From positions 456,567 through 520,566 of the forward strand of contig JBMOPW010000034.1 in the NCBI GenBank assembly GCA_049322915.1: DNA of 64,000 nt. The letters are read 5' to 3'. The notes under the pieces were generated by a model. That model was not told where the DNA came from, ran no database searches, and saw nothing but the letters and a program-made list of their open reading frames with translations. This DNA comes from Candidatus Zhuqueibacterota bacterium. Lineage in GTDB: Bacteria > Zhuqueibacterota > Zhuqueibacteria > Thermofontimicrobiales > Thermofontimicrobiaceae. This document shows positions 189 to 10,176 of the stretch, piece after piece. Numbering within the stretch: the stretch's first letter is position 1; the number at the start of each line of letters is the position of its first letter. The translations under genes and the position numbers were made by a program.

Positions 189-2267
189 TTACTTCAGCAC
201 CAACAGCTTTTTTGTTTGAATAAAATCGCCAGCCTCCAGCGTGTACAGATAGACGCCGCTGGGCCAATGCATGGCGTCCAGGCTCACCTGATAGTCGCCC
301 GGGAATTGAAATTCACGTACCAGAACGAATAATTTTTCGCCCAGAATATTAAAAACAGTCACCGTCACCGGCGCGCCCTCAGCAATGGAATATCGAATCT
401 GCGTCCGGGCATTAAACGGATTGGGGTAATTCTGAAGCAGCCGGCAGACAGACACGCGGTGCGCGTCATCTTCGCTCAAAATGACATCGGTGCTCGTCCC
501 GAACCATGCGAGAATATTTTGCAGTAATGCATTCGCACTGTTCTCCTGGGGACCGGCAATGCCTTCAAATCCGAAAGCGAGATAGACAAGACGCCCCCCG
601 GCAGCGCCATACTCCGCACAAATCCCGGCGCATTTGAATCCAGGGATATAATTCAAGATCGTCGTTGCCGGGGCTATGGGTGTAATGACATCCGGCGAGT
701 TCTGGTTATCCGCGCAGTCGTACGGGCCGGTCAAATTGACGAACAGGCCATTGGTCATGGGATGGCCGCGCGTTCCCATCGTCATGGTGGCTGTGGCGCT
801 GTCGCTGAGAAAATGAGAGCAAAGGAAATTCGAAAAAAAAAGGCTGTCGCCTGGCGCTCCATCGGCGCACAGATCGTAACCGATGTTTTGTCCGGTCAGC
901 AACAAATGGCCTCCTGCCATGAGATACTCCGAAACGACGGTCTGTTCCGCCGCGGTCAGCGACGTCTCCCTGTCGTAGCCCGTAAACCAGATCACGGATT
1001 CATAGCCCAGCAAATCAGCAAGAGCCGGGCAGCCGCGCACGTTCGCATCCCAGTGGTCGGCGAATAGATGCCGGGTGTAATAGTGCTCGTACAGAGAGCC
1101 GCAATCGTCATCAACGAGCAGCGTGGTTGCGCTGCCAATGACGACCTGAAACTGATCCGTGCACTCGAAAATGCCATCAGCCGTGATATGTACGCCAAAA
1201 GTGGCCTCATGCGTTTTACAATCCACTCCGACCGAGACCATGAATGGTTCCTCTGTGTTCGATTTCAGATCGCCGCTGGCCATCGCCCCTATCCAGCAGG
1301 TCGATTGCAGAATAACGACGTCACTGTCGGAACTGACCAGCGTCGCAGTGACCTGGTCGGCTGGCAGGCTGATATTTTTCAGCGTCACCACAAGCTGAAC
1401 CGTTTCCCCGGCGTCTGCCTGACCATTGCCGTTTCCTCCACTGTCGTTCAAATTATAGTTTTCATACCAGATGTCCGGCCTCTTGAGCGGGACATACGGC
1501 GCCGGCGTCAATCCGATGACTTTAATGGGCGTCACTGTATCCGACGCAGCCAGGAAATAGGTCGCTTCGGCCCGGCTTTCGATATCATAATGCTTATCCG
1601 GGGACTGGCCAACCGTCTGAAGGTACGAGAAAAAGCTCGTCCGCATCTGAGGCGTCCAGTAGTGCATGGGAATGACGCGCCTGGGCTTGATCAGATGAAT
1701 GAATTTTTCTGCGGCCATGATGAGATTTTCCTGGGATTCAATCGTCAGAAACAGAAGATCGATGCCCATTGGAAAATTGCTCAGCACCTCGTTCTTCACC
1801 TCTTCAATGTCCAGATTCGCCATGGTCGCGCCGGCGTCTCCCAGATGACATATCGTCAAATCTCTGTATCGGAAGAAATAGCTGCCGTTTCCCTTCACAG
1901 AAATCAATGACTCGCTGGTTAGCACCGAAGCGATATGAATCCCTTCGATGTCCAGGCTATCCGTCATCAGAAGGACATGCTCGACATCGTACGGAATCGT
2001 CCGGCCAAAGTGATCGGTGTGTGTGTGCGAATAGGTGACCACATCCGGATACAAATGGCCGATGTCATAAATAGGGCTGGGATAGCCATAGGAGTTGGAT
2101 TCTCCGTAATCGCATAAAATTCTGACGCCGTTATCGAATTCCAAAGCAAAGCAGGAGTGGCCTAAATAATGGATCTGCACTTCGCCCTCTGCGGCATCTG
2201 AAAAGTGGGGATGGAGCATGATTGCTCCGAAAATGATCCCAATGAAATATTGACGCAATCGCTTCAT
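189..2267 (-). CDS. Secreted MBL-fold metallo-hydrolase with Ig-like/accessory domains and C-terminal FlgD-Ig/T9SS-type sorting-like domain
   Basis: Signal peptide; LGHSCF, SHTHTDH (HxHxDH), HLGD and PMHY motifs; C-terminus LLQNYPNPFN...SGVYLYTLEAG...KLLVLK; ATG 2267 follows a GGAGG RBS. Confidence 0.8.
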   Translation of the reverse strand: MKRLRQYFIGIIFGAIMLHPHFSDAAEGEVQIHYLGHSCFALEFDNGVRILCDYGESNSYGYPSPIYDIGHLYPDVVTYSHTHTDHFGRTIPYDVEHVLLMTDSLDIEGIHIASVLTSESLISVKGNGSYFFRYRDLTICHLGDAGATMANLDIEEVKNEVLSNFPMGIDLLFLTIESQENLIMAAEKFIHLIKPRRVIPMHYWTPQMRTSFFSYLQTVGQSPDKHYDIESRAEATYFLAASDTVTPIKVIGLTPAPYVPLKRPDIWYENYNLNDSGGNGNGQADAGETVQLVVTLKNISLPADQVTATLVSSDSDVVILQSTCWIGAMASGDLKSNTEEPFMVSVGVDCKTHEATFGVHITADGIFECTDQFQVVIGSATTLLVDDDCGSLYEHYYTRHLFADHWDANVRGCPALADLLGYESVIWFTGYDRETSLTAAEQTVVSEYLMAGGHLLLTGQNIGYDLCADGAPGDSLFFSNFLCSHFLSDSATATMTMGTRGHPMTNGLFVNLTGPYDCADNQNSPDVITPIAPATTILNYIPGFKCAGICAEYGAAGGRLVYLAFGFEGIAGPQENSANALLQNILAWFGTSTDVILSEDDAHRVSVCRLLQNYPNPFNARTQIRYSIAEGAPVTVTVFNILGEKLFVLVREFQFPGDYQVSLDAMHWPSGVYLYTLEAGDFIQTKKLLVLK

Positions 2268-2520
2268 TGTTATTCCTCCCAAAGTGTGTGTGAATTGAAC
2301 TGCACCTCTCTTGTCGGCCCTGTCATGCGGCTGAAACCAGGGGCAGATTGATGATGTTGTTGATAAATCCTATTTCTCGAAAATTTATATTGTGTAAGTC
2401 CAATATTTAAGTTATGAAAATTGTAAAAAAGGGACTAAATCAACTACATCATTGATGCCAGTTCTGGCAATACGCATTTCGTGGGCGCGTGAATTCCGTT
2501 CATCAGCAAGCCTAACGTAC

Positions 2521-2563
2521 AAAACCGAACTGTCAAAATCGACCGGGTTTAGAAAATCGGACG
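2521..2563. promoter_or_regulatory. Three imperfect direct repeats (aaaa[c/t]cg-a-c), candidate binding site of the neighbouring AraC regulator
   Basis: aaaaccgaac 2521-2530, aaaatcgacc 2535-2544, aaaatcggac 2553-2562, upstream of the MBL gene and downstream of the AraC gene. Confidence 0.35.
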
Positions 2564-2730
2564 TTTTTTTCTCACCTAAATTGAGCGAACAGCATTCAGC
2601 CATTAGCGCGCATAAAAGAAATAAAGAGAAACATAGGCAGTATCTCACCGATTCAATAACTGTCCGAAAACTGATGATTTCAACCCATTGTCATTCTGAG
2701 CGCCCACCCGCCACTGCAGAGCGTGAAGCG

Positions 2731-2906
2731 TAGTACACCATTTCATAAATTTTTTAGGGTTTGAAAATTTTAAAAACTGCATTCATAGAATGCTGTCATA
2801 GCCCCATGTTTTTAGCGCGAATCCATTTTGTGAATGCCCGATAGTCCCGCAAATGCGGGACAAGCGTGACAACCAACCCTAAAAGATATTGTGGAACGCA
2901 GTACTA
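2731..2906. mobile_element. MITE-like element with ~31-bp imperfect terminal inverted repeats
   Basis: Left tagtacaccatttcataaattttttagggtt vs reverse complement of right end tagtactgcgttccacaatatcttttagggtt; internal hairpin gtcccgc-aaat-gcgggac. Confidence 0.6.
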
Positions 2907-3121
2907 AGCAGGTCTTTTCTCTGCGTCCTTCGCGGCCTCTGTGTTTCATCTGATTTGTTAATATCCCCCCAACTTATAGGCAAGGCTTAGCTTAAATGGA
3001 GAGGGATAACCGATGTTCACCTTCTTGACCTAAGGGTAAGAACGGTTTTAGGGGACGATGTCTGATGGGATGAAGCTTGAAAATATCAACCCCATAGCTA
3101 ATTCAAGTGTTTTCGGATTGG

Positions 3122-5145: not shown

Positions 5146-7086
5146 ATGTTGAATATAGATACATACAAAAAAAATGGTTTATTCTCCGGCGAGCTTAGCA
5201 GGAAATCATACCAGTCATTGATCAATGAAAACGCCACGCTCCGTTCGATCATCGAAACCCTGGAAGAGGGCGTTGTTGTCTCGGATCGGACCGGCCATCT
5301 GGTATTTTTCAATGACGAGGCGCGCACGACGCTGGGCATTGGACTGCAGAACATTGCCATGGACGAATGGTCCAGCGTCTACGGGACTTATTACCCGGAT
5401 AAAAAGACGCCTTTTCCTTCCGAAAATCTGCCTTTAGCCCGCGCCCTGCAAGGCGACGATGTGCGCAGTGAACTCATTTTCATCAAAAATGCACTTCGCA
5501 GAGACGGTGTTTTCATCGAAGTTTCGGCGTACCCACTGTACGATGATGCTGGCGAGACCATCGGCGGCGTCGCTATCATCCGCGATGTAACCAGTCTGAA
5601 AGAAGCGGAGATCGCCAGGAAGCAGAGCGAAGACAGGGTGAAAGCGCAATTCAAAGGCTTTCCCATCCCCACCTATGTCTGGCAGTCCGCCAATGATGAT
5701 TTTATTTTGATCGATTACAACGTCGCCGCCGACCAGTTCACCAGCGGCCAGGTGAAGAAATTCATCGGCAGGAAGTCCAGCGAGATTTTTGCCGATACGC
5801 CGGACGTGATGTCGGATTTTAAAAAGTCCTTCAGCGAGAAAAAGACTGTGCGCCGTGAAATGTCATCGTATCGGCTGCGCACCACCAATGAAAACAAGGA
5901 AATGGTGTTCAACTACGTGTTCGTGCCGCCCAATCTGGTCGTGCAGTTCACTGAAGACATCACCGAGCAGAAAATCGCTGAAAAAGAACTGCTCAAATTA
6001 TCCAAAGCCATTGAGCAAACCGCGGATACCGTCATCATTACAAATAAAGACGGTTTCATCGAGTATGTGAATTCGGCGTTTGAAATCACCACCGGCTACA
6101 GTTGCGCAGAGGCAATTGGGAAGACGCCGCGGCTGTTACAATCCGGCATGCACGATAAAAATTTTTACAAAAATATCTGGCAGACCATTCTCAGCAACAA
6201 CCACTACAAGGGCACCATCATCAATCGAAAGAAGAACGGCGAGCTGTACTGGAGCGACCAGACCATCACTCCGATGAAAGACGACAATGGCAATATCACG
6301 CATTTCGTGTCTGTGCTGAAGGATATTACGGAGTTGCGGAAGAAGCAGGAGCAGGAATTTCAGTTGTCCATTGCCCGGGAAATCCAGCAAAAATTATTCA
6401 GGACAAAAATTCACGTGCCGGGATTTGATATTGCCGGCGCCACCTATCCTGCGGTCGAGACGAGCGGTGATTATTTTGACTTCATCACGTTGCCGGGCGG
6501 GCAATGCATTTTTATCGTCGCGGATGTGAGCGGGCACGGCATCGGTTCCGCGCTCATCATGACGGAGACGCGGGCCTTTCTCCGCGCATTCCTGAAAATC
6601 GAATCCGATCCCGGCATTCTGCTCACATGGCTGAATCGCGAACTGTTCGCGGATCTGGACATGGAGCGCTACGTGACGCTGGTATTGGCCAAAATTGATC
6701 CGGAGAATAAAACGCTGGAATATGCCAGCGCCGGCCATCCCACTTCCTACATCATGAACAAAAATGGCGACGTGGCGCACGAGTTGAAGAGCACCGGCAT
6801 TCCGTTGGGAATTATTCAGAATGCCCGCTACCGCACCGAGGAGACGATTCAAATGGCGGCCGGTGATTTGGCGGTGTTCCTGACCGATGGCATTGTGGAG
6901 GCGCATGGCCAGGACAATGAGGAATTCGGCGTTGACCGGACATTGACTCACATTCGGACGAACAGTCATCGTTCGGCCAGGGAAATCATCGAGGTGTTGT
7001 ACTCCAGCGTGCTTCAATTCACCAAAAATCAGACTCAGGAGGATGACATCACATCCATCATCTGCAAGGTTGAATCGGAAAAGTAA
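5146..7086 (+). CDS. Multi-PAS sensor with C-terminal PP2C/SpoIIE (RsbU-like) phosphatase
   Basis: Three PAS/PAC-like segments (ending IRDVT, EDITE, KDITE); PP2C motifs SGDYFD, ADVSGHG, SAGHP, LTDGIVEA, EDDIT. Confidence 0.92.
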   Translation: MLNIDTYKKNGLFSGELSRKSYQSLINENATLRSIIETLEEGVVVSDRTGHLVFFNDEARTTLGIGLQNIAMDEWSSVYGTYYPDKKTPFPSENLPLARALQGDDVRSELIFIKNALRRDGVFIEVSAYPLYDDAGETIGGVAIIRDVTSLKEAEIARKQSEDRVKAQFKGFPIPTYVWQSANDDFILIDYNVAADQFTSGQVKKFIGRKSSEIFADTPDVMSDFKKSFSEKKTVRREMSSYRLRTTNENKEMVFNYVFVPPNLVVQFTEDITEQKIAEKELLKLSKAIEQTADTVIITNKDGFIEYVNSAFEITTGYSCAEAIGKTPRLLQSGMHDKNFYKNIWQTILSNNHYKGTIINRKKNGELYWSDQTITPMKDDNGNITHFVSVLKDITELRKKQEQEFQLSIAREIQQKLFRTKIHVPGFDIAGATYPAVETSGDYFDFITLPGGQCIFIVADVSGHGIGSALIMTETRAFLRAFLKIESDPGILLTWLNRELFADLDMERYVTLVLAKIDPENKTLEYASAGHPTSYIMNKNGDVAHELKSTGIPLGIIQNARYRTEETIQMAAGDLAVFLTDGIVEAHGQDNEEFGVDRTLTHIRTNSHRSAREIIEVLYSSVLQFTKNQTQEDDITSIICKVESEK

Positions 7087-7214
7087 CCCGGCGGGACGTG
7101 CCATTGCCCCGAAGCGAGTCGACCCATCGCGCCGTAAACTTGCGCGACAAATCTGTTTTCAATGCTGCCTGAATTTCTAACCTGAATTATTCATAAAATT
7201 AGATAAAACTGTCG

Positions 7215-7798
7215 GTAACCGATCACAGGGTGGTTAAGAATGACAGGATAGCAGGATGTTTGGGATAGACAGGATTAATTAACTTTAGCTCGTTATCATG
7301 TTAATCAAAACATAATCGTGTAAATCACAGGAGGCTGCGTAATGGAACTTGCAAGCTTGACTGAAAAAATTATTGGCTGTGCTTACAACGTATATAACAT
7401 GTTAGGATTTGGTTTTTTAGAGTCTGTTTATGAAAATGCCCTGACAATTGAATTAAAAACAATGGGATTTGCTGTAGAAAGACAAAAACCCATAAAGGTT
7501 TATTATGAAGGAGTAGTCGTCGGCAATTTTAAAGCGGATATCATTGTCGACGAGCTGATCATCATTGAATTGAAATCCGTAGAAAAAATAGTAAAGGAGT
7601 TTGAAGTCCAGTTGGTGAATTATCTAACGGCCACTATCAAACCAGTAGGCTTATTGCTGAATTTCTCTCCACATAAGGTAGAAGTAAAAAGAAAGGTGAG
7701 GATATTACCGGATAGAGAATAATCCAGTAAATCATTATCATCCTGTTATCCTGTCCAAAGTAAACAAATACAACTTTTGATCCCCTGTGATCAATTAC
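7215..7798. mobile_element. Non-autonomous IS-like element (TIRs + 8-bp TSD) carrying a GxxExxY gene
   Basis: TIRs gtaaccgatcacaggg (7215-7230) and ccctgtgatcaattac (7783-7798), 14/16 match; identical flanking 8-mer aactgtcg at 7207-7214 and 7799-7806; AT-rich interior. Confidence 0.8.
7342..7722 (+). CDS. GxxExxY protein (PD-(D/E)XK nuclease superfamily, PDDEXK_3)
   Basis: GFLESVY motif; ADIIV...IIELKS catalytic-type motif; QLVNYL; GLLLNF; GGAGG RBS. Confidence 0.93.
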   Translation: MELASLTEKIIGCAYNVYNMLGFGFLESVYENALTIELKTMGFAVERQKPIKVYYEGVVVGNFKADIIVDELIIIELKSVEKIVKEFEVQLVNYLTATIKPVGLLLNFSPHKVEVKRKVRILPDRE

Positions 7799-7995
7799 AA
7801 CTGTCGTTGAGTTTTTTTCTTTCTAATTGTTCAGATGAAATGCAAAATCAAACTTAGTTTTATCTGCTTAATTGAAAATCATGTACCATTCAGGTTATCC
7901 CGCTTCCTTCAGAAAAACAATGAATAATGCGGGCTAAATTATATTCTGTAATTTTTTCAGGACAAGACAATCGGCGCGTCCCATTGGCCATCATC

Positions 7996-10176
7996 TCAGA
8001 AATAATACAGATACTTCAGCTTGAACACCCCGGCCCTGTCCACAACGTGCATCCGCTGCGGCAGTAATTCCCCGGATTCACCGAATTGTAAGCTCCGATC
8101 GCGGATATCATTGATGGCGAAATAGATCCAGCTTTTGGGAGAGAAATTGTACGAGAACAGCAGACCGAAGATGGCCTGTTCCACCTGTTCGCTGGAGCGC
8201 AGAAAGACATTATCCAGATACACGCGCACGTTCAGATTGTTAATTGGGGTCACCGACAGATGCGGGCGCGCGTTCAACGTGATGTCCTCCACAGCGCGAT
8301 CCGGATTGTACTCGATGAACATATTCACAATCGATCCAATTTGCAATGAATTGAAAATCAGGTAGTTGAGCTCCAGTGACGACCAGGAATAGGAGGCCAG
8401 GTAGCCACGGCTGAAATTATACGTTCGCGAATAGCCGCCGCCTAAAAAGGCATTCAGTTTGGGATTGACATTGGACCATGAATTGAAATTCACCGTGTAC
8501 GAACTGAACCGGACGCCTCCATCCTTCGCGTCGCCTCCATCCAGGCTGATCTCGAATCCCCAGTTATCCCGAAATTGCATGTTATACCCGAGCGCGCCGC
8601 CATAGTCAGTGTAATTGTCCACTTTTTCATAGTCTAAATACCCACCTCCATAGATGAGGATGGAGCGGATATAACCATCCTGAAAATACCAGCGCGGGCC
8701 GGCAATACCGACAAATTCGCCAGTCCCCTTCCAGGGCACAAATCCGACCTGATCGATGTCAAAATTATCGCCGATGTAGCGGCCGCGGATGAGCACCATG
8801 GACTTCTCCGAAAACATCAAAAAGCCGGCTGAGCCGCCAAAATCGCCCTGGTTATTTTTGAATGACCTCGCGATCTGATAGGCAAGCTGCCAACTGGATG
8901 TTCGAAAGGCGCCATCGATATCGATCACACCATTATCCTCGGTTTGCGAGTGTTTCCCGACGATCATCATGCCGACCGATGAGTTGCCCAGTATCTGTTT
9001 TTTCACACGCGCCGAGCCAAAATACGCCTGATCTTCGGTGCAGTCCTCCCCATCCAGGCGATAGTCTGTCTTGCCTGTGACGGCCATGAAACCACCATAT
9101 TCCCAGGTATTCATCCGACCGAATGCTTTGGTCCCGAACACCAGCGGGACCTCGTTGCCATCGGGCAATTTTTTACCGATGCGCCGGGAATAAAATAATT
9201 CCATTGGCCGATAAAAACCGGTATTCCGCTGCCGTCCCGACGCCATAAAAATTTCATTGCCTTCGGTGAAAAAAGGCCGGCGCTCCGAGAAATAGGATTC
9301 GTAGCGGGAGATGTTGAATTCGAACGGATCTGCCTCGATCTGAGCAAAGTCCGGATTGGCGGTAAGCTGAAATGTGAGTTCCGGCGAGGGATTGTAGAAA
9401 ATATCCAGACCAGCGTCAGGATCTGTTTTGTAGCTGTTATCGCCCTGATAGGTTGATTTGGCAATCGCCACCGGATAAATTTCCAGATGCAATCCCTTCA
9501 CTGTCGGCCGGAAATCGTTGAAGACGAGCCGTCCGAATTTTGAAATGCGCTGGCCTTCATTCTCTTCGTAACTGCACCAGTAAATATCCTCGTTGCGAAC
9601 CGGCATCCATCGATCAAAATCCAGTCCCCATTCGACAATCGTCGCGTCGTACTGAATCGATTTATAGGGGATTTCCATTTCAACGACAAATCCCCAGGGA
9701 TAGATTTTCGAGCCGGAAAACCAGATACCATCCCAGGAATAATCCCGGTTGCGGGCGTCATCCAGCAGCCGGCAATCGGCTTTCACGCCGGTCGCCGAGA
9801 CTGCAAACTTGTAGGCAGTCTGCTTGTTATCAAATGTATCGAGCATTAGCGAGACGATATCGCCGCCGGACTCGTCCAGTTTGCCCTTCTGCTTCTGGAT
9901 ATTGGCCTCATCATCGTAGCAGATCATCATGCAATAGAGGGCGTCCTCCGATGTCACCAGCCTGGCCACGGTTCTGCGCGTCGCCTGTTGGTTGTGATAG
10001 GGCTGCTGCTGAATGAAGTCTGAGACCGAATCGGCCGAGGCCCAGGCCGGATCGATGATGCCATCGACGGAAATAGGCTCCGTCACTTTTCGCAATATCA
10101 ACTGTTTGGATTGATCGGCAGCGACTGCCGAAGTAAACAGCAAGACGCCCAACATCGTTGCGAGATAGGTTTTCAT
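7996..10176 (-). CDS. CBM9-like/DUF5916 family secreted or outer-membrane protein
   Basis: Signal peptide; ISVDGIIDPAW and WGFVVEMEIPYKSI (CBM9-like); NPDFAQIEAD, ERRPFFTEG, LFYSRRIG; C-terminal KLKYLYYF resembles a beta-barrel terminus. Confidence 0.8.
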   Translation of the reverse strand: MKTYLATMLGVLLFTSAVAADQSKQLILRKVTEPISVDGIIDPAWASADSVSDFIQQQPYHNQQATRRTVARLVTSEDALYCMMICYDDEANIQKQKGKLDESGGDIVSLMLDTFDNKQTAYKFAVSATGVKADCRLLDDARNRDYSWDGIWFSGSKIYPWGFVVEMEIPYKSIQYDATIVEWGLDFDRWMPVRNEDIYWCSYEENEGQRISKFGRLVFNDFRPTVKGLHLEIYPVAIAKSTYQGDNSYKTDPDAGLDIFYNPSPELTFQLTANPDFAQIEADPFEFNISRYESYFSERRPFFTEGNEIFMASGRQRNTGFYRPMELFYSRRIGKKLPDGNEVPLVFGTKAFGRMNTWEYGGFMAVTGKTDYRLDGEDCTEDQAYFGSARVKKQILGNSSVGMMIVGKHSQTEDNGVIDIDGAFRTSSWQLAYQIARSFKNNQGDFGGSAGFLMFSEKSMVLIRGRYIGDNFDIDQVGFVPWKGTGEFVGIAGPRWYFQDGYIRSILIYGGGYLDYEKVDNYTDYGGALGYNMQFRDNWGFEISLDGGDAKDGGVRFSSYTVNFNSWSNVNPKLNAFLGGGYSRTYNFSRGYLASYSWSSLELNYLIFNSLQIGSIVNMFIEYNPDRAVEDITLNARPHLSVTPINNLNVRVYLDNVFLRSSEQVEQAIFGLLFSYNFSPKSWIYFAINDIRDRSLQFGESGELLPQRMHVVDRAGVFKLKYLYYF

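Follow-up and report, generated by a model that had tools for sequence, protein, structure and literature searches.

The 584-bp element at positions 7215-7798 of the window very probably derives from an IS66-family insertion sequence as a non-autonomous form, namely a mobile insertion cassette (MIC) with a GxxExxY gene as its passenger that would be mobilized in trans; this reading is drawn from sequence comparisons. By the window we mean the whole stretch of 64,000 nucleotides that was analyzed, G000:C34:456567-520566, where G000 is its own genome in 45 contigs. We propose that an IS66-family DDE transposase provided in trans would bind the GTAACCGATCACAGGG ends and insert the element between cuts staggered by 8 bp, the repair of which would yield an 8-bp duplication as is typical of the family. 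The element may have multiplied in this way to 15 copies, the one in the window having landed in a small repeat between convergent genes. Its passenger would be a pre-existing unit present in many phyla, in which CAGGAT words in inverted arrays lie on both sides of a GxxExxY nuclease gene.

Structure, copies and insertion site of the element

The element is bounded by two 16-bp terminal inverted repeats (TIRs) that are complementary at 14 of 16 positions and enclose 552 bases. The left end, GTAACCGATCACAGGG, and the reverse complement of the right end, GTAATTGATCACAGGG, both start with GTAA, as do the TIRs of IS66-family non-autonomous elements. Exact matches to the end pattern GTAAYYGATCACAGGG occurred in the window at the two termini of the element only. 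With aactgtcg directly outside each end as a target-site duplication (TSD), the arrangement at 7207-7806 is far beyond chance. The G+C content of the element is 36.0%, compared with 48.8% for the genome. The sole ORF of at least 40 aa wholly within the element encodes a 126-aa PF13366 protein, such that there is no transposase inside and one passenger gene, which is what defines a MIC. The original prediction had described a transposase-less 584-bp element with TIRs and a perfect 8-bp TSD, in which the only ORF is an intact, AT-rich GxxExxY gene with its own ribosome-binding site, and both descriptions were borne out. The gene is further bracketed by an inner inverted repeat, the arms of which are 36 nt long and 78% complementary, and it thus has the layout of a word-array GxxExxY cassette. 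A scan of 7000-8000 for promoters and terminators returned five promoter-like sites, where 3.4 were expected from the shuffled background, and no terminators.

Table 1. Positions of the element, its parts and its surroundings in the window (unprefixed coordinates) and of the 65-bp insert in other contigs of the genome (contig-prefixed coordinates).
Feature	Position	Strand	Basis
PAS/SpoIIE phosphatase gene, upstream neighbor	5146-7086	+	
Host repeat "Repeat X" (about 168 bp, MITE-like), left part	7181-7214	.	genome repeat comparison
Target-site duplication aactgtcg, left copy	7207-7214	.	read from sequence
Left TIR, GTAACCGATCACAGGG, IS66-type, GTAA start	7215-7230	+	sequence, end-pattern and inverted-repeat searches
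Inner inverted repeat, left arm: four (C/G)(A/G)GGAT words at 8-9 nt spacing	7242-7277	+	inverted-repeat search
Ribosome-binding site AGGAGG, 7 nt before ATG	7329-7334	+	read from sequence
GxxExxY / PDDEXK_3 gene, 126 aa, intact; predicted core D66, E76, K78	7342-7722	+	profiles, alignment, model
Inner inverted repeat, right arm: three ATCCTG words, begins at the stop codon	7720-7755	-	inverted-repeat search
Right TIR, CCCTGTGATCAATTAC, reverse complement GTAATTGATCACAGGG	7783-7798	-	sequence, end-pattern and inverted-repeat searches
Target-site duplication aactgtcg, right copy	7799-7806	.	read from sequence
Host repeat "Repeat X", right part	7799-7933	.	genome repeat comparison
DUF5916/CBM9 protein gene, downstream neighbor	7996-10176	-	
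65-bp insert sites, part 1	C7:98995-99059 (equivalent to window ~7430); C7:25-87; C14:1092115		
65-bp insert sites, part 2	C15:16749; C16:323544; C37:55; C38:7887		

Other copies of the ends were sought throughout the genome. BLAST of the element against the 45 contigs returned 31 pieces, among them four full copies of 582-584 bp, one full copy of 649 bp and about 20 fragments at contig ends. The pieces were mostly 97-100% identical to the element; one full copy was 91% identical, has a stop in its ORF and is flanked by a 7/8 duplication. Since about 20 contig ends fall in the element, the assembly evidently breaks at this 584-bp repeat. Counting the ends gave 15 on the left and 15 on the right, that is, 15 copies. 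When split copies were paired according to the 8 bases that adjoin their ends on the outside, seven partners agreed at 8/8 and two at 7/8, the second-best partners agreeing at only 2-5/8. Over all 15 copies, the 8-bp duplication was perfect in nine and matched at 7/8 in four, a length in agreement with an IS66-family element. The remaining two were without a clean duplication: the flanks of C14:373346 agree at 5/8, and C40:43421/C12:129757 were paired by elimination only.

The two genes flanking the element converge toward it, as the original prediction had stated, but the insertion site is a repeat of about 168 bp rather than plain intergenic DNA. This host repeat has the termini CCTGAATTATTCAT and ATGAATAATGCGGG with CTAA flanks, and there are about 90 copies of it in the genome; pieces of it are also present in several relatives. 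In the window it is flanked by ctaa at 7177-7180 and 7934-7937, and across its copies the flanks are 3-4 bp of CTAA or TTAA. Two uninterrupted paralogues of the repeat, C14:973147-973310 and C11:129786-129948, run straight across the insertion point, each with a single AACTGTCG and a single aactgtcg. They are 97-100% identical to the window copy on the left side (36-37 nt) and 93-96% on the right side (135 nt). These paralogues are clean paralogous empty sites. There is a second such case, in which the copy at C26:132725 splits a repeat that is left intact beside the copy at C26:198878.

An empty site with a single aactgtcg, as anticipated by the original prediction, was thus present in paralogous form in the same genome, but no allelic one was found in the orthologous spacer of a genome of the same genus or in contigs from public runs. 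The same-genus genome, G001, retains both flanking genes at 67-70% identity, and the spacer between them is longer and contains a different ORF of 289 aa instead of an empty site. Three contigs from public runs join 7206 to 7799 and skip 592 bases (two in X1 and one in X3), the shorter side being 29 letters long. We rejected these joints as an allelic empty site because the flanks belong to the repeat of about 90 copies, with two uninterrupted paralogues in the genome. The loose end of the X3 joint, moreover, matches the flank of the C14 paralogue. Most simply, the joints are the uninterrupted paralogues themselves.

IS66-type ends and the source of the transposase

The published descriptions of IS66 elements resemble what is seen here. 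Inverted repeats that begin with GTAAGCG and produce 8-bp repeats are given for the family in PMC11946415; the TIR GTAACTGCTCAGCA with an 8-bp repeat is given for ISDge4 of the ISBst12 group in PMC12898284, and the end GTAACCGTCCGGGCA for passenger-carrying members in PMC12888890.

The GTAACCGATCACAGGG 16-mer terminates many elements in the genome of the window and in its relatives. A looser form of the end pattern found 106 termini in the genome, which form 22 inverted pairs within 12 kb. The pairs fall into about four families of approximately 148, 247, 266 and 584/649 bp, 649 bp being the longest, and ten of the 22 have perfect 8-bp duplications. The families of 148, 247 and 266 bp are gene-less and are bounded by the same ends and 8-bp duplications. 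In the 266-bp family, the IS66 ends surround a gene-less word-array unit. The ~148-bp family has the sister ends GTAACCGTTCACAGGT and is represented by C7:64729-64876 and about 12 further sites, with aatcttaa, gaaatctt and cctttttg as examples of its duplications.

Among the 41 genomes searched, the exact 16-mer end with at most one mismatch was present in 16, most abundantly in G015 (127 sites), G004 (88) and G003 (66); the reversed control pattern had no match in any of the 41. G015 also has a 474-bp family with the same ends, in which no convincing cargo ORF was found. Copies of the cassette itself were found at 80-84% nucleotide identity in G004 and G005, both of which belong to other genera. 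One of them, in G004 (L002 9-573), has perfect ends and the TSD aaaacatc and retains a gene remnant only. Since the cassette is 80-84% identical across genera, whereas the flanking host genes are 67-70% identical within the genus, it appears to have spread beyond the genus. These copies may fit either horizontal movement or a recent common invasion, to which the sequence comparison points weakly.

The original prediction held that the element is a non-autonomous mini-transposon mobilized in trans, and an autonomous IS with near-identical ends does exist in related genomes and encodes an IS66-family DDE transposase. In G024, the element at C5:782-3219 is 2438 bp long, has GTATCCGATCACAGGG at both ends and contains two genes. 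The first encodes an IS66-family transposase, which matches PF03050 (E 1.2e-32), DUF6444 and zf-IS66 and scores 230 bits against NF033517, for which the cut-off is 180. The second encodes a 292-aa DruA/DUF4338-like protein (PF14236, E 3.2e-39). The same gene pair adjoins the terminus GTAACCAATCACAGGG on contig C365 of G004, a genome of the same taxonomic family as that of the window, where the transposase is truncated by the contig end. The ends of these autonomous elements are 1 of 16 bases off those of the cassette, and their hosts are of other genera. Together with the 15 copies, these elements suggest that mobilization in trans is the probable mode of movement.

The DruA/DUF4338-like partners lie at L011 (G024:C5) 2218-3096 and L015 (G004:C365) 832-1701, both on the reverse strand. 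The partner protein (PF14236, E 3e-39) also has a weak match to Mom (PF25680). The full-length elements that have this partner are without the accessory genes usual for IS66. The best plasmid relative of the transposase, at 44.6% identity on a Solidesulfovibrio plasmid, has no DruA-like neighbor.

No IS66 transposase was detected in the G000 assembly, in which there was no PF03050 match; searching it by tblastn with the two proteins of G024 returned no hit under E 0.6, and none under E 2.9 for the IS66 transposase. None was found in the same-genus G001. Among the 41 genomes, transposase matches were limited to G024, G004, G005 (fragments with stops) and G015 (26% identity). Ten contigs were additionally read, seven of which are short at about 1.1-3 kb. 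Five of the short ones, C9, C22, C23, C24 and C25, have long ORFs and C31 has shorter ones; by eye these ORFs were taken as transposases of other IS types. Contig C17 has only short ORFs. In the terminal 60 bases of the ten contigs, no GTAACCG ends were seen by eye. With an assembly that is 96% complete and interrupted at repeats, these searches do not demonstrate that the transposase is absent from G000.

It could be argued that the copies are fossils, the IS66 partner having been lost from the lineage and the element being immobile now. The failure to find an IS66 transposase in G000 or G001 is in line with this, as are the transposase fragments with stop codons that are all G005 retains and the 91%-identical copy with its ORF stop and 7/8 duplication. 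Most copies are 97-100% identical, however, and nine have perfect duplications, which indicates recent amplification. Furthermore, short-read assemblies that break at repeats often lack multi-copy IS, and about 20 contig ends of this assembly lie in the element. We consider it rather unlikely that the copies are fossils. Since the copies are near-identical, a source transposase was arguably present recently.

The GxxExxY gene as passenger

The 126-aa protein matches PF13366 (PDDEXK_3) with an E value of 3.4e-39 (134.3 bits, cut-off 22) and TIGR04256 (GxxExxY) with 1.2e-40 (138.5 bits, cut-off 35). Over 25 homologues, D66 and K78 of the PD-(D/E)XK pattern are invariant and E76 is nearly so. A sequence search of solved structures gave no match. 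The AlphaFold model of the protein has a pLDDT of 91.3, and its best neighbor in Foldseek is Cas4 SSO0001 (4ic1; E 4e-4, TM 0.59), followed by Hjc resolvases (2wiw, E 3e-3) and lambda exonuclease. The protein may accordingly be read from its model as a putative nuclease. Of 8000 candidates for the GxxExxY family, 7984 scored at E of 0.001 or below, and copies 59-71% identical occur in many bacterial phyla and in some archaeal bins. A search of the literature for GxxExxY or PDDEXK_3/PF13366 returned almost nothing, and nothing on mobility. GxxExxY proteins are a very large orphan family.

The ORF is intact in only three of the copies, and a fourth has a TAA stop. The 649-bp form of the element has a 65-bp insert that falls exactly in the codon for the Y of GxxExxY. 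This insert forms a hairpin with perfect arms of 13 bp and a predicted stem of -18.2 kcal/mol. It was found in seven places, which represent at least six of the 15 copies (one is split over C14 and C15), and always in the identical position (Table 1). It was found nowhere else in the genome of the window and in none of the 40 relatives searched. Since the same insert occupies the same position and occurs nowhere else, the copies that have it descend from one ancestor that was broken and still multiplying.

In the copies with the insert, translation in frame gives ...E S V Y P V(GTG) TAA TAA. A second GTG follows after 53 nt, and from it the remainder of the gene is in frame (VNENALTIELK... as far as the native stop). 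A codon, a stop and a hairpin are followed here by a match to that codon, a dead gene and a restart being equally conceivable. This layout recalls the translational bypass of T4 gene 60.

The original prediction had raised the possibility that the nuclease itself is involved in movement. In its strongest form, the GxxExxY protein would be the mobility enzyme and the 584-bp element autonomous, with a PD-(D/E)XK "transposase". The gene is indeed the sole ORF and has an intact D...ExK core, and GxxExxY genes are multi-copy and patchy, their proteins being 59-71% identical across many phyla. The inner 10 nt of the TIR, GATCACAGGG (7221-7230), also differ at only two positions from the word junction GATAACAGGA (7247-7256) in the left array, a likeness that we estimate as a roughly 1-in-100 coincidence when offsets are allowed for. 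Nevertheless, at least six copies with a broken gene have multiplied, and the gene-less families of 148, 247 and 266 bp share the ends and the duplications. In the full-length elements that have these ends, the gene for an IS66 DDE transposase is present and GxxExxY is absent. GxxExxY genes elsewhere, moreover, are without TIR and TSD beyond the background of the controls described below. It is therefore very improbable that the nuclease drives the movement of the element. Given that copies with a broken gene have multiplied and that these ends also bound gene-less families, the nuclease is cargo rather than engine. The gene is not needed in cis for IS66-type movement; trans-complementation by the three intact copies is possible.

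Word arrays across phyla and comparison with known systems

The inverted CAGGAT word arrays, which the original prediction had missed, travel with the gene across phyla. The comparison set consisted of 80 genome loci encoding proteins 59-71% identical to that of the window, which by their record titles are from KSB1, Planctomycetota, Verrucomicrobiota, Desulfobacterota, Nitrospirota, Chloroflexota, Bacteroidales, Clostridiales, archaeal bins and others. The word GACAGGAT was present within 300 nt upstream in 60 of these loci and its reverse complement within 330 nt downstream in 65. Upstream of the gene, ACAGGATA was in the forward orientation in 49 loci and in the reverse in six. The word-array GxxExxY cassette was not found in the literature.

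We examined the same loci for TIRs and duplications, using thresholds of at least 10/12 for a 12-nt TIR and at least 7/8 for the TSD. Such pairs surrounded the GxxExxY gene in three of 80 loci, compared with one to four of 80 in five controls that combined the upstream flank of one locus with the downstream flank of another. GTAA-type ends occurred at one of the 80 only, L023, with the TSD atgaaatc. Among 80 metagenome loci there were no convincing IS66-type ends; one locus has terminus-like sites, with three mismatches each, that lie on the same strand and form no pair. Word arrays without IS66 ends are seen in the closest metagenome relatives (66-78% identity in amino acids). Since the words are found in 60-65 of the 80 loci and IS66 ends almost never, the gene and its word arrays form a unit that travels across phyla, and the IS66 shell is a lineage-specific vehicle. 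IS66 packaging explains the local amplification only and not the general spread of GxxExxY genes. The claim that the element is a footprint of how such genes spread thus applies within this genome, where there are 15 copies, but not as a general route, given the frequency of TIR and TSD in the controls.

The word arrays were also considered as subterminal sites of IS66; this was rejected because neither full-length element has them at its ends. Two GxxExxY loci from bins labeled as different domains, L064 (a Bacteroidales bin) and L078 (a Euryarchaeota bin), have a common terminal repeat, CCATATTTCGCAC, in copies separated by about 700 bp and flanked by short repeats, which may be another type of shell or a binning problem. 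Two further GxxExxY paralogues are present in G000, at C34:451400-452700, about 4 kb before the start of the window, and at C13:110570-111450. Both sit in nests of hairpin units of about 100-110 bp with different 9-nt-phased words (..GGATGA/GCAGATTA/GCTGATCA.. for C34 and ACAGGATG.. for C13). These units look like gene-less hairpin copies next to the gene.

How the word-array unit came to be inside the IS66 shell may be viewed in a different way. The word-array cassette could be an active mobile unit that inserted itself into a pre-existing IS66 MITE, in which case the shell would be an accident of the landing site. The words and the gene are conserved across phyla without IS66 ends, the autonomous IS66 elements are without word arrays near their ends, and three shells (the 584-bp element, the gene-less 266-bp family and the GTAA-type ends of L023) hold the word-array unit directly inside the TIRs. 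On the other hand, no cassette-free version of the shell was found in the genome and hence there is no before-and-after pair, and the inner unit shows neither a duplication nor a defined junction. We regard such an insertion as a tentative possibility, somewhat short of even. It concerns the origin of the element only and is compatible with the IS66 cassette as the explanation of the later spread.

As a working guess, the GxxExxY protein may bind or cut its own arrays in a separate selfish or maintenance cycle. Going further, the gene and its CAGGAT arrays could be a self-recognizing selfish unit, with the nuclease reading the arrays, that has parasitized an IS66 mini-transposon; we think this speculative and on the whole quite unlikely. 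If true, the unit would have gained a DDE-driven amplification that continues even after the nuclease gene is broken. It would be a parasite of a parasite and a natural experiment that separates two layers of mobility.

With the IS66 cassette as the preferred reading, the window provides a clean documented route by which a GxxExxY gene has multiplied inside a genome, as seen from the IS66 ends, the 8-bp duplications, the number of copies (15) and the empty sites in paralogous repeats. It is a local and not a general route, and it is not driven by the nuclease. The broken-gene subfamily and the gene-less sister family should be a useful test bed for the functions of the nuclease and the word arrays.

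Mobile insertion cassettes are a known category, MIC231 of Bacillus cereus, for example, being derived from IS231. Since the element is a transposase-less IS66 derivative with a passenger and this category is already in print, it is a mobile insertion cassette and no new class. The suggestion in the original prediction of an undescribed class was accordingly set aside: transposase-less passengers bounded by inverted repeats are known as MICs, and passenger-carrying IS66 members are in print (PMC12888890). MICs such as those of qnrD and the Xanthomonas Tn3-like ones (PMC3913671, PMC4337579) share with the element two IS-type inverted repeats, a target-site duplication, the lack of a transposase, one passenger gene and mobilization in trans by a related IS. 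Unlike these MICs, the element is derived from IS66, its passenger is a repeat-bracketed nuclease unit rather than an adaptive gene, and it is present in a high number of copies (15), many of which have a broken passenger.

The likeness to the IS66 family (ISBst12 group, "tIS66"), to judge from PMC11946415, PMC12898284 and PMC12888890, lies in the GTAA(C/G)C ends and the 8-bp duplication. Related full-length elements, in addition, encode NF033517 / PF03050 transposases. Unlike in the IS66 family, the transposase is not in the element and none was found in the assembly. In the full-length relatives, the transposase pairs with a DruA/DUF4338-like gene, unlike the classical IS66 accessory pair, which is tnpA/tnpB.

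A small nuclease-type gene bracketed by inverted repeats is also reminiscent, by analogy, of the REP/REPIN-RAYT systems, and gene-less copies of the repeats may have their counterparts here in the 266-bp family and in the tandem hairpins beside the C13 paralogue. Unlike in REP/RAYT, the enzyme would have a PD-(D/E)XK fold and is not an HUH Y1 transposase of the IS200/IS605 type, the gene matching PF13366 only, and the spread in the window is explained by the IS66 ends and not by the inner repeats. The predicted PD-(D/E)XK core fold of the GxxExxY protein is common to Cas4 SSO0001 and to the archaeal Hjc Holliday-junction resolvases. In contrast to these proteins, to which it is 18-21% identical, the GxxExxY protein is 126 aa long and lacks an Fe-S cluster domain.
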